From NCBI GenBank assembly GCA_963850905.1, contig CAWKMU010000003.1, positions 2,048,001-2,112,000 of the forward strand: 64,000 bases of DNA, written 5' to 3'. The position numbers and the translations under genes were made by a program. Positions 2,169 to 16,007 of the stretch are shown here, piece after piece. This DNA comes from an uncultured Gemmatimonadales bacterium (GTDB lineage Bacteria > Gemmatimonadota > Gemmatimonadetes > Gemmatimonadales > Gemmatimonadaceae). The first letter of the stretch is position 1. Each line of letters starts with the position of its first letter. A model generated the notes under the pieces. It was not told the origin of the DNA and made no database searches. It saw nothing but the letters and a program-made list of their open reading frames with translations.

Positions 2169-3479
2169 ATGGCCTATCTTGTGACTCACTTCATCCTGGT
2201 CGCTGGGCACGAGTACTCGACAAGAGGGCTCGACTTCGACCAGATGTGCACGCACCGCGCGCAGGAGTGGATCGACACGCTCCGCGCCAAGACGCGCAGT
2301 CACGGGTCGTTCTCGTCGATTCGTCTCACGCCGCCGGTCACGCTGCGCTTCCTCCGGTTCCACTTCACCACGGGGGTCATCGAGTTCATCGACTTCAATC
2401 TCGACCTCACCACGGGCGGCAAGGTCGTAGCGCTGACCGAGAAGAGTTGGACGCCTATTGCCAACTACGCTGGGGACGCGTCGACTGACCCGCGACAAGT
2501 CTGCCCAACGCGGACAATGCGTGCGATCGCCGCCAGCGACTACGCCACCAGCCCGGGTGACGATTTCCCCTCCTTCATCAGCGGTCATCAGGCCGACGAC
2601 GTGATGTCGATTGAGGATGTGTACTCGACCGTGCAGCAGATGGGACAAAAGGACCCGTTTATGTACTCGCTCGTAGAGCTGAGCTTCTTCTGCCACGGGC
2701 ACGTCGGCGGGCCCATTCTGGTCAACAGCAGCGAGGCGAAGACTACGCCGAGCGACGAGCGCGATCCATTCGACAAGGATGGGCGGGCGAAAAAGGACTG
2801 GCTACCAGACATGGGCGACATCGACGCGCCCAACACTGCGTTGGCGTCATTCGTCAAGGCGTTTGACGCGCCAGGCGGATTCCTTCAGGCTTGGGGATGC
2901 GTGGCCGTGCCCGCGATGAAGCACGTGCTCTACGAGGCCTTCGTCCTACGCCGCATGCAGTCGGACGCCGTGGGAAAGGCGCTGCTGGCGCTTCAGCCAA
3001 TCGACGATGCTACGTCATTCGACTTCGACTTCTCAGACTCCGATCCCTCGCCGGATGGAACCAAGCGCCCGTGGACCAAGGACTACAAAGTCGACAAGAC
3101 GTTCTTTCCCAGCAGCACGAGTCAGACGACGTTTTCGGCGACGTTCCTCGAGATTAAGCAGCTGCTGGCGCGGCTCAATGCGCGTACCTACGTCTACCAG
3201 TGCGCCCTGAACGCGCAGATCCTGGCCAAGGGCGCTTTGTACGGTACGGACGGCAACCCCGAGAAGACCAAGAAGTACAATCTCATGCGCGTGTGCATCA
3301 ACATGAGTCACGAAACGCCCCCGCCACCGCCCAAGAAGCCGAATCCGGAATGCCCGGACGGCTTCGCCCCCTATCTCCAATTTCACAAGACCTATCTCGG
3401 CTTCACGCACGACCCAGTCCGCGGCTACTGCATCTACGATCAAAACCTGGTAACCACGATCATGAACCTGACGGCGTAG
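2169..3479 (+). CDS. Hypothetical protein with putative clan CD (caspase/C80/DUF4347-like) His-Cys protease dyad
   Basis: ATG at 2169 after GAGGTG. Motifs LVELSFFCHGHVGG (His codon 2694) and GFLQAWGCVA (Cys codon 2898), each after a hydrophobic strand. First gene of the coupled operon. Confidence 0.6.
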   Translation: MAYLVTHFILVAGHEYSTRGLDFDQMCTHRAQEWIDTLRAKTRSHGSFSSIRLTPPVTLRFLRFHFTTGVIEFIDFNLDLTTGGKVVALTEKSWTPIANYAGDASTDPRQVCPTRTMRAIAASDYATSPGDDFPSFISGHQADDVMSIEDVYSTVQQMGQKDPFMYSLVELSFFCHGHVGGPILVNSSEAKTTPSDERDPFDKDGRAKKDWLPDMGDIDAPNTALASFVKAFDAPGGFLQAWGCVAVPAMKHVLYEAFVLRRMQSDAVGKALLALQPIDDATSFDFDFSDSDPSPDGTKRPWTKDYKVDKTFFPSSTSQTTFSATFLEIKQLLARLNARTYVYQCALNAQILAKGALYGTDGNPEKTKKYNLMRVCINMSHETPPPPPKKPNPECPDGFAPYLQFHKTYLGFTHDPVRGYCIYDQNLVTTIMNLTA

Positions 3480-3482
3480 CCA

Positions 3483-14256: not shown

Positions 14257-16007
14257 CGGCGCGCGTGATCGAGAGATTCGTGGGGCCGTCGGTCACGTAT
14301 TGGGTGCGGGGCGAGCCCGATCCGCGGTCAGACGCGACCAATGCGCTCGTCGTGCCGCTCCAGGCTCGGGTGCGTGACCCCATGTGGTTTCTCACGCGGC
14401 AGTGGCAGCTCGGCGAGTTCGAGGGCGCCGACAGTGGATCGCCTGCGTACGTCGCGTTGACTGAGCAGTCGGGGCAGTTGACTGGGTGGACCGCCGCCGG
14501 CGGCGGTACGAGCGGGCTGACGGCGGCGCCCATCGAGGCCCAGACAGAGCGGGAGGCATTCACGCCGGATGTGGCGACACGTGTGGAATTGGGGCAGGTG
14601 TTCGAGCAGCTGCTAGCGGAGCGCGGACAGGTGGGGCTCGTCGGGGCGTTTCGAGGCGCGTACGCGGTGTCGAGCGTGCCCGACGATCCGGCGGACGTGG
14701 CCGAAGTGCAGTTTCGCGCGGTGGTCGGGGATCGCGCCATCGACGGAGTCGCGTTGGCGCAAGCGATTGCGGCCGCCGCGCCGGGATTACCGGCGGCCCC
14801 GGTGATCACTGATGCAGCCGCGAAGGCCGCGGTGTTGTTGGCCATTGAGGATTTCCAGGCATGGGTCACCGCTACGATCGGATCAGTCGGAACGGCGGAC
14901 CCCGTGGCGTGGGCGCCTACGCAGCTGGCCTATGCGTTCAACGTCCTCGGGACGGGCCCGACGGGTCAGACGGTGTCGCTCGCGGCGACGCCCGGTGCTG
15001 ATGGGTTGGTCGAGTGGTACGCGCTCGATCTCGCGGCAAGCGCGGCTGGTGCCGCCGGCGTCGCGGTCGGGCGTGGGCCGGCGCCGACGATACGAGCGAT
15101 CATTCCTGCGCACGTGCGGTTTCGGGGGATGCCGAACGCGCGGTTCTGGGACTTCGAGATCGCCGGCACTGACCTCGGGAGCATCATCCCCGACAAGCGT
15201 GACCTGGCGCGGCTGGCCATCATGGATTTCATCATGCTCCACGCCAACGATTGGTTTGTCGTGCCGATCGACATGGCACCCGGCGATCTGCATCAGATCG
15301 ACGAGCTGGTGGTTCACGATGTGTTTGGCGTGGACACGACGGTCGTGCGAGCTGACCGCACATTGGGGTCCGTCGGCCAATGGACGATGTTCACGACGAC
15401 CGTCGTCGGACAGCCACCGTCGGCAACCGCCGATTTCTTCGTCCTGTCCCCCACAGCGGCAACGACGATCGAGCAAGGCACTGTCCTCGAAGCGGTGGAG
15501 TTCGCGCGCGACGAGATGGCCAACATGGTGTGGGCTCTCGAGCAGACGACAGAGAACGGGGTCGGCGCGCCGTGGCCCGGACATGAGCGCGACATCGCGC
15601 ACAACGTGCCGGCACCAGGCGCCGGGCCACCCCCGCCCCCACCGATTCCTGGCGTGCCGCTCCGCTACGTCATTCAGGATCGCGTACCCGAATACTGGAT
15701 TCCGTTTCTGCCACTGTCGATCGATCCGGTTGCCGGGTCGGTGGCGCTGGAGCGCGCGGCCATGGTCCGCGACGACGGAACGCCGATCGAGCCGGCCGGT
15801 CGCATCCTGCGACCATCATCGATCGGGGCGTCGCCCTATCGAGTGCCGGAAGAGGTAATCGCCCCGACGGGCGTGCTGGTCGAGCGCGTCGTGGCACGTT
15901 GTCGCGCGGTCGATGGGAGCACGGCGCTGTGGGTCATGCGCCAACGCGGGCCGGGGACTGGCGAGGTGAACAGCGCCTTGCGGTTTGATCAGGCCGTGGA
16001 GGGATGA
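14253..16007 (+). CDS. Uncharacterised protein (operon gene 5), about 584 aa
   Basis: ATGA overlap at 14253-14256. Trp-rich motifs ARVRDPMWFLTRQWQLGEFEGADSGSP, RFRGMPNARFWDFE, ANDWFVVP and RDEMANMVWALE. Confidence 0.8.
   Translation: MTARVIERFVGPSVTYWVRGEPDPRSDATNALVVPLQARVRDPMWFLTRQWQLGEFEGADSGSPAYVALTEQSGQLTGWTAAGGGTSGLTAAPIEAQTEREAFTPDVATRVELGQVFEQLLAERGQVGLVGAFRGAYAVSSVPDDPADVAEVQFRAVVGDRAIDGVALAQAIAAAAPGLPAAPVITDAAAKAAVLLAIEDFQAWVTATIGSVGTADPVAWAPTQLAYAFNVLGTGPTGQTVSLAATPGADGLVEWYALDLAASAAGAAGVAVGRGPAPTIRAIIPAHVRFRGMPNARFWDFEIAGTDLGSIIPDKRDLARLAIMDFIMLHANDWFVVPIDMAPGDLHQIDELVVHDVFGVDTTVVRADRTLGSVGQWTMFTTTVVGQPPSATADFFVLSPTAATTIEQGTVLEAVEFARDEMANMVWALEQTTENGVGAPWPGHERDIAHNVPAPGAGPPPPPPIPGVPLRYVIQDRVPEYWIPFLPLSIDPVAGSVALERAAMVRDDGTPIEPAGRILRPSSIGASPYRVPEEVIAPTGVLVERVVARCRAVDGSTALWVMRQRGPGTGEVNSALRFDQAVEG

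Follow-up and report, generated by a model that had tools for sequence, protein, structure and literature searches.

Five co-oriented genes, g1 to g5, lie near the start of a 64,000-nucleotide (nt) stretch, the window, of contig CAWKMU010000003.1 from an uncultured Gemmatimonadales bacterium. They form a single copy of a cassette that is widespread and moves horizontally, with an exchangeable enzyme gene in front of a fixed core of four genes, g2 to g5. The order of the genes, their conservation, the exchange of the front gene, a patchy distribution that includes plasmids, and the lack of known domains are observed directly. The cassette is proposed, with a probability of about 40%, to be a leaderless, ATP-independent, membrane-active complex that would carry envelope-degrading enzymes to other cells. 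Each copy holds ~4,200 conserved residues without a named function or a solved relative. No paper on 'DUF6603' or 'PF20248', the family of g2, was found in the literature searched, and a search with generic terms likewise gave nothing relevant.

The distribution of the core was surveyed with an alignment of g4 against contigs from one genome per species, which gives lower bounds, and 66 loci were kept. A relative of g4 is encoded in at least 543 of 620 candidate stretches. The cassette is defined operationally by adjacent, co-oriented homologues of g2, g3, g4 and g5 in this order, a definition that the window fits. When the five window proteins are compared with the kept loci by tblastn, the order g2-g3-g4-g5 on one strand is found in 47 of the 48 that have enough contig, while g1 matches one of the 66, and weakly. 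An earlier account of the block made from its letters only, called here the sequence-only reading, had envisaged a conserved g2-g5 core behind a variable first gene, and this is the arrangement that the survey found. The kept loci belong to Gemmatimonadota (the closest among the matches listed, with 57% identity), Myxococcota, Acidobacteriota, Verrucomicrobiota, Actinomycetota, Chloroflexota, Nitrospira, Pseudomonadota (including a tubeworm endosymbiont), Bacteroidota and others. The protein collection contains 659 homologues of g4 and 870 of g3, and every named one is 'hypothetical'. The sole exception to the gene order, at positions 10001-24245 of locus L047 from a Desulfatiglandales metagenome-assembled genome, has g4-g5 followed after ~2 kb by g2-g3 on the same strand.

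Mobility is apparent from the relatives of the host and from plasmids. Within the host's order g5 is present in 3 of 61 genomes, which are the host's own, where g2 is found in single copy, and those of two of its nine congeners. One congener encodes g1-g5 proteins 81-92% identical to those of the window at another genomic place, while congener G002 has a core 51-64% identical and an M14 carboxypeptidase gene in the front slot. The congener cassettes sit in flanks that differ from those of the window, and none of the window's flanking genes is kept beside the cassette in other genomes. Relatives of g5 occur on 14 plasmid records, six from Streptomyces, four from haloarchaea and the others from Gemmatirosa, Rhizobium, Paraburkholderia and Nocardia. 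The complete succession of front gene, g2, g3, g4 and g5 was confirmed on two plasmids, those of Streptomyces longwoodensis NBC 00651 (L134, NZ_CP109035.1, 1-17638) and Salinigranum marinum ZS-10 (L135, NZ_CP100462.1, 73-19709). In RefSeq both cassettes appear as a 'DUF6603 domain-containing protein' accompanied by hypothetical proteins. These cultured carriers provide ready experimental systems. Further cultured, non-pathogenic carriers are Gemmatirosa kalamazoonensis, on a plasmid, Verrucomicrobium sp. BvORR034 and Kitasatospora purpeofusca NRRL B-1817.

Homologues of g3-g4-g5 are also found at positions 815-9943 of MT835531.1 (L133), a record from faecal samples with a guanine plus cytosine (GC) content of 76% that bears the title 'UNVERIFIED: Bacteriophage sp.'. 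The phage label is probably an error and the DNA bacterial, and this unverified scaffold is not taken to show that the cassette comes from phages.

Residues 434-993 of g2 (nt 4782-6461) match positions 2-501 of the 502-position Pfam profile DUF6603 (PF20248) with 427 bits and an E value of 1.2e-127, above the gathering score of 27 bits that defines membership, which bears out the assignment of g2 as DUF6603-like. For g1, g3, g4 and g5 the Pfam and NCBIfam scans gave nothing at E≤0.1, and comparison with PHROGs gave no match for any of the five proteins. The sole match in PADLOC-DB 2.0 is PDC-M02B over 45 residues of g4 (E 0.004, 14 bits), which falls short of membership in a defence system. 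Comparison with the PDB by sequence and profile gave nothing for g2, g3 and g5 and chance-level matches for g4 (E 0.15 or worse), and a search of the ESM Atlas with g4 returned its own unnamed family only. Because the scans of Pfam, NCBIfam, PHROGs and PADLOC gave nothing beyond DUF6603 and the 45-residue match, no ATPase, nuclease or phage-tail domain is detected in the cassette, as the sequence-only reading had stated. Its observation that the proteins have no recognizable signal peptide agrees with their hydropathy, which reveals no N-terminal hydrophobic segment in any of the five, and the Trp/Pro/Gly-rich motifs that it described correspond to invariant columns of the g2, g3, g4 and g5 alignments, which are mostly W, P and G. 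No paralogy was found by hhalign between g3 and g4 or between g3 and g5, while residues 757-851 of g4 show a weak similarity to the helical insert of g5 (probability 50%, E 1.7e-4).

The gene in front of the core is exchanged between loci. Among 38 upstream proteins (18 + 20) scanned with Pfam, PhoD-like (8) and M64-like (6, one of them divergent) proteins are followed by S8 subtilases (3) and by single cases of M14, PLD, Amidase_2 (divergent), hemopexin, WD40, amylase (weak) and trypsin (weak); three are probable unrelated neighbours and 11 have no Pfam match. In 24 of 31 tabulated loci the stop codon of the front gene is positioned -4 to +38 nt from the first codon of g2, and in five others the distance depends on the g2 start that is chosen. 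No signal peptide was seen by eye in 26 front-gene N-termini, and hmmsearch found no docking domain common to g1 and the other front enzymes (best E 0.37). If the complex carries enzymes, the front slot would be a natural catalogue of deliverable ones. Gene content downstream of g5 is not conserved and includes no recurrent small neighbour gene.

The final residue is a proline in 11 of 26 front products (L004, L005, L007, L009, L010, L017, L019, L020, L057, L058 and L067), which belong to unrelated enzyme types (PhoD-like, M64-like, M14 and S8). This C-terminal proline may be a recognition or coupling feature. The g1 protein of the window ends in NLTA.

Close relatives of g1 are few, 10 being retrieved by a word-indexed search, while a profile of the g1 family finds 668 representative proteins at E≤0.001. 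Its members are mostly stand-alone proteins of about 350-370 amino acids (aa). His176 is invariant, and at least 90% of 50 aligned relatives retain Cys244, within a WGC motif; both residues come directly behind a hydrophobic stretch (..SFFCHG.. and ..QAWGC.., respectively). Between them lies an invariant acidic loop, RD..DKDGR..KD, at residues 198-210. In clan CD peptidases the catalytic His precedes the Cys, and each follows a beta-strand. The g1 family shares with clan CD members such as the Peptidase_C80 CPD and DUF4347 this order and the preceding hydrophobic stretches, a likeness of sequence pattern only, and differs from them in a 68-residue His-Cys spacing and an acidic loop that are particular to itself. 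The nearest named ESM Atlas clusters are DUF4347 (0.85) and Peptidase_C80 (0.83), values below 0.9 that serve as leads only. DUF4347 members were collected from the phylum for comparison and matched in 2 of 301 genomes, too few for a profile. It is plausible that g1 is a cysteine protease, as initially proposed: the conservation of H176 and C244 and the Atlas leads fit this assignment, while Pfam gave no match for any of 50 family members and the g1 profile retrieved nothing from the PDB at E≤10.

Fusions give a clue to the substrate of g1. Among 25 longer relatives, VanY or Peptidase_M15_3 is present above the cut-off in four, Peptidase_M15_4 below it in one and trypsin in one. The g1 domain is placed among peptidoglycan-peptide hydrolases because of its fusion to VanY/M15 domains in these relatives, and g1 probably acts on the cell wall, on peptidoglycan peptides. 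Of 61 metagenome loci with a g1 relative, 13 have a g2 gene directly behind it. The more distant stand-alone relatives are the last genes of other operons, made up of large genes without known function. One such operon recurs, with genes of ~746-750 and ~768-780 aa followed by a g1 relative of ~360 aa (L076 5262-11080; L079 5351-11059; L087 4539-10813; L094 4620-10798). Pfam gave nothing for its large genes in the two copies scanned, L076 and L087, and it may be a second system using the g1 enzyme family.

Domains joined to the core or encoded next to it lean toward an envelope-directed, extracellular role. Relatives of g4 are fused to PG_binding_1 and to FG-GAP/VCBS, the g4 protein of Salinigranum carries a BGTF surface domain and its g5 protein a lamin-tail domain. 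The front gene of S. longwoodensis codes for 1514 aa annotated as peptidoglycan-binding, and in L005 an M23 gene follows closely after the core. These domains weigh against the view that the cassette is an intracellular anti-phage or abortive-infection system in which the core detects an invader and releases a variable effector enzyme. Such a view could draw on the layout itself, a variable effector slot beside a fixed core being that of many defence systems, in which proteases, PLD and phosphoesterases are common effectors, and on the patchy, plasmid-borne distribution, with an NB-ARC gene near the S. longwoodensis copy and AbiE and PIN-like genes near that of Salinigranum. However, the peptidoglycan-binding, VCBS/FG-GAP, BGTF-surface and lamin-tail fusions point outside the cell, and Amidase_2 in the front slot, M23 in L005 and the M15 domains fused to g1 relatives target walls, which are beyond the reach of a cytoplasmic effector. 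Pfam and NCBIfam revealed no NTPase, nuclease or nucleic-acid-binding domain in the 4,174 aa of the core, and PADLOC offers nothing more than the short g4 match. A defence function is thus considered improbable.

The structure of g2 was modelled with AlphaFold2 (AF2) from an alignment of 45 sequences, with a predicted local distance difference test score (pLDDT) of 79 and a predicted template modelling score (pTM) of 0.46. The model features an N-terminal helical domain (residues 1-225) and a run of ~39 long, next-neighbour antiparallel amphipathic strands at residues 244-875 (nt 4212-6107), in keeping with the beta-rich scaffold that had been anticipated. Over the alignment one face of the strands consists of 74% L/V/I/A/F with few Tyr/Trp, while the opposite face is polar. 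Foldseek places SlpA/SDBC (8agd_A, E 2.7e-5) first, then LptD, ushers and maltoporin, and membrane barrels fill 49 of the top 50 rows of the VIA wide search with Z up to 14.8. Re-ranking brings the ApoB100 belt (9coo_A) to the top with Z 15.4, a root-mean-square deviation (rmsd) of 9.2 and 294 aligned residues, porins being within 1 Z unit. What g2 has in common with giant single-chain membrane beta-barrels (30 strands in SlpA, 26 in LptD and 24 in ushers) and with the ApoB100 belt is a long series of amphipathic strands, each antiparallel to its neighbour. Comparison with closed transmembrane barrels gives Z up to 14.8-15.1, but with rmsd ~10-15 Å and a template modelling score (TM-score) ≤0.3. 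In contrast to outer-membrane beta-barrels, g2 has no N-terminal hydrophobic segment by hydropathy and the cassette is also carried by haloarchaea and by monoderm Streptomyces. The best structural analogues are all sheets in contact with lipid, and the model loosely suggests a sheet of this type. A link of g2 to phages was also considered and rejected: the search of viral structures in BFVD gave only long tail-fibre-like, beta-rich rows with TM-score ≤0.14 in the five rows at E≤0.001.

The ApoB belt being the top re-ranked analogue (Z 15.4, rmsd 9.2), g2 could be imagined to wrap or channel lipid, like that belt or bridge-like lipid-transfer proteins, in a particle or bridge whose other subunits and enzyme would be devoted to lipid storage, vesicle formation or lipid transfer, and the aliphatic or Phe-rich face of its strands, poor in Tyr/Trp, is also in its favour. 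The rmsd is nevertheless high, with porins scoring equally within 1 Z unit, no conserved lipid-metabolism gene is found nearby, and peptidases, phosphatases and wall hydrolases, not lipid enzymes, predominate among the swappable enzymes. A lipid particle or bridge is accordingly held to be very unlikely.

The g3 protein is conserved at its ends, residues ~1-430 and ~720-1023, and variable in its centre. No Pfam domain was detected among the 120 listed of its 870 homologues. The centre of the window's g3 features a hydrophobic helical hairpin, and 68 of the 120 closest homologues (the best 120 of 870) are hydrophobic at the equivalent position. S. longwoodensis g3, which RefSeq describes as VCBS repeat-containing, has instead a central insert of ~960 aa.

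The AF2 model of g5 (46-sequence alignment, pLDDT 81, pTM 0.78) has a body that is a beta-sandwich, and residues 103-208 form a helical insert, while the conserved N-terminal motif (residues 1-60) is modelled as disordered. Searches of the PDB with this model gave nothing by Foldseek at E≤0.001 and, in the VIA wide search, a best Z of 5.2 for SAM-like helices and an FN3-like sandwich, which is at background level. Complex prediction covered one pair of subunits, the g4 C-terminus (residues 1000-1426) with g5. The score is 0.82 (runs of 0.81, 0.82 and 0.82), while the best of three controls reaches 0.00; in calibration the 0.82 mark is attained by 116 of 157 solved complexes and by 2 of 215 mismatched pairs. 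The runs share at least 39% of contacts, the pLDDT of the partner is at least 70 and the predicted g5 interface on g4 spans residues ~1219-1331 (nt 13630-13968). Neither protein has a sequence relative with a solved structure, so the score is unlikely to be due to model memory. These models support binding of g5 by the g4 C-terminus, and with it the stoichiometric complex that the sequence-only reading had suggested obtains one computational support, for this pair of subunits.

No known system was matched by sequence, by profile or by the fold searches with g2 and g5, in accordance with the earlier statement that no characterized system has this architecture. The closest parallels are of logic. 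The Tc (ABC) toxins are encoded in one operon and combine giant leaderless subunits devoid of ATPase, a membrane-inserting part and an enzymatic payload; giant leaderless ATPase-free subunits plus an enzyme are likewise the components of the cassette. However, the VRP1, SpvB, RHS and TcA domains were not detected in the cassette proteins (Pfam, E≤0.1), nor in 37 g3 homologues. The payload of the cassette would come from a separate upstream gene instead of a C-terminal hypervariable region, and its predicted membrane element is a beta-sheet instead of an alpha-helical channel. With type VI secretion systems and Rhs proteins, and with extracellular contractile injection systems and tailocins, the cassette shares a fixed core with swappable modules (Amidase_2, PLD and peptidases) and a mobile, patchy spread. 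It differs from contractile injection systems and tailocins in that no sheath, tube, baseplate, spike or AAA+ protein was found with Pfam and PHROGs. Polymorphic toxins have a variable toxin domain joined to a conserved trafficking domain and an immunity gene beside it; here the variable enzyme has a gene of its own, the g1 profile detected no domain in common with the other front proteins, and no recurrent small immunity-like neighbour was found. The cassette thus resembles Tc and polymorphic effector systems in logic yet does not belong to them, because their defining domains, a fused toxin domain and an immunity gene were not found, and it is rated as categorically new in kind.

In the proposed mechanism the four leaderless core proteins would assemble into a large complex devoid of ATPase. 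Contact with membranes would be made by the amphipathic beta-sheet of g2 and, in the lineage of the window, also by the hydrophobic hairpin of g3. The complex would carry the front enzyme specific to each locus, here g1, and leave the producer by a non-classical route. The enzyme would then be brought to the envelope of another cell, acting as an inter-microbial weapon. If an enzyme-carrying membrane-active complex of this kind exists, it would represent a new type of machine in microbial warfare or export, and it could explain how leaderless wall-degrading enzymes exit cells. A 2025 study reports that a known signal peptide is missing in 68% of archaeal peptidoglycan hydrolase homologues (PMC12352652). 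In a bolder form of the proposal the cassette would be a protein-delivery particle of bacteria and archaea that works independently of envelope type, with the g2 sheet as conduit or membrane grip, the swappable g3 insert as an aid and the folded enzyme delivered into or onto neighbouring cells; this form is regarded as rather doubtful.

The same enzymes might serve the producer itself, the cassette being a new, non-classical export route or a surface scaffold that places leaderless exo-enzymes (phosphatase, proteases, carboxypeptidase and wall hydrolases) on or outside its own envelope for nutrient scavenging or wall remodelling. The front families PhoD, S8, M14 and M64 are typically extracellular, yet no signal peptide was seen by eye; g2 resembles large translocating barrels (ushers, LptD and SlpA); wall- or surface-binding domains are found on core subunits, and the neighbours in the window are ordinary envelope and hydrolase genes. 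One and the same core is present, however, in diderms, in monoderm Streptomyces and in haloarchaea, whose envelopes differ fundamentally. It has no energy source, no signal peptide and, by hydropathy, no membrane anchor on g2, g4 and g5, and its patchy plasmid-borne distribution is more typical of conflict genes. A role on the producer's side is therefore judged somewhat unlikely.

Several points weigh against the proposed mechanism of a membrane-active complex that carries enzymes to other cells. Neighbour surveys found no conserved export, lysis or immunity gene beside the cassette, and PhoD, subtilase and M14 enzymes are as compatible with nutrient scavenging as with attack. Several front genes score at their curated cut-off or under it (PhoD 25.9-35.8 bits for a cut-off of 27; M64 20.3-44.2 for 26). 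The g3 hairpin, put forward earlier as a membrane hairpin, is present in the window and confined to one sub-clade, being found in only 8 of 37 diverse homologues and lacking in the other 29. The pTM of the g2 model is only 0.46, and in the rows listed its fold matches have rmsd 9-15 Å, TM-score ≤0.3 and 4-11% identity. On account of these rmsd and TM-score values the matches are taken as a shared arrangement, a curved amphipathic beta-meander, and not as homology. The hydrophobic face of g2 could simply be buried against g3-g5.

The five open reading frames (ORFs) of the block, their sizes and their overlaps were read directly from the DNA and are as first described. From g1/g2 to g4/g5 the junctions are TAG-CCA-ATG (a 3-nt gap), ATGA, TGATG and ATGA. 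Relatives of g1 start with MAYL, matching the ATG at 2169. For g4, the ATG at 9976 is favoured over a longer ORF from TTG-9736 because in congener G001 the g4 match begins directly after the end of g3. The GC content of the window is about 67%; in g1, g2 and g4, as delineated by a crude ORF caller, GC is 0.80-0.84 at third codon positions vs 0.44-0.58 at second positions. The overlap rule of this caller dropped g3 and g5, whose coding status rests on homologues. All five ORFs have homologues and are thus considered genuine genes, not chance frames of 67% GC DNA.

Features of the cassette in the window
Feature	Position	Strand	Length	Remarks
g1	2169-3479	+	436 aa	exchangeable front enzyme, unnamed His/Cys family
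g2	3483-6908	+	1141 aa	DUF6603 protein
g3	6905-9976	+	1023 aa	core protein, variable centre
hydrophobic helical hairpin in g3	8573-8689	+		residues ~557-595, GGG turn; hydropathy peak 2.82 at residue 569
g4	9976-14256	+	1426 aa	core protein
g5	14253-16007	+	584 aa	core protein
terminal hairpin pair	16034-16143 and 16150-16180	+		RNA fold and sequence; probable terminator region

The segment 16008-16180 folds as RNA with -109 kcal/mol (z -11.3), a value equalled by none of 200 shuffles, and the strong hairpins noted earlier at the end of the block are thereby confirmed. Directly past them lies a tRNA-Pro(GGG) gene on the minus strand (16180-16253). A direct repeat of this tRNA was sought near the 5' end of the operon and none was found, so a tRNA-targeted island border is not indicated. 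Sequencing runs matching parts of the stretch are of soil metagenome DNA only, with no RNA run among them. The upstream neighbour (window 13-1881) codes for a MacB/FtsX-type permease, and the downstream neighbours (window 16438-24676) for a run of alpha/beta hydrolases, a beta-lactamase-fold protein and an S15 peptidase.

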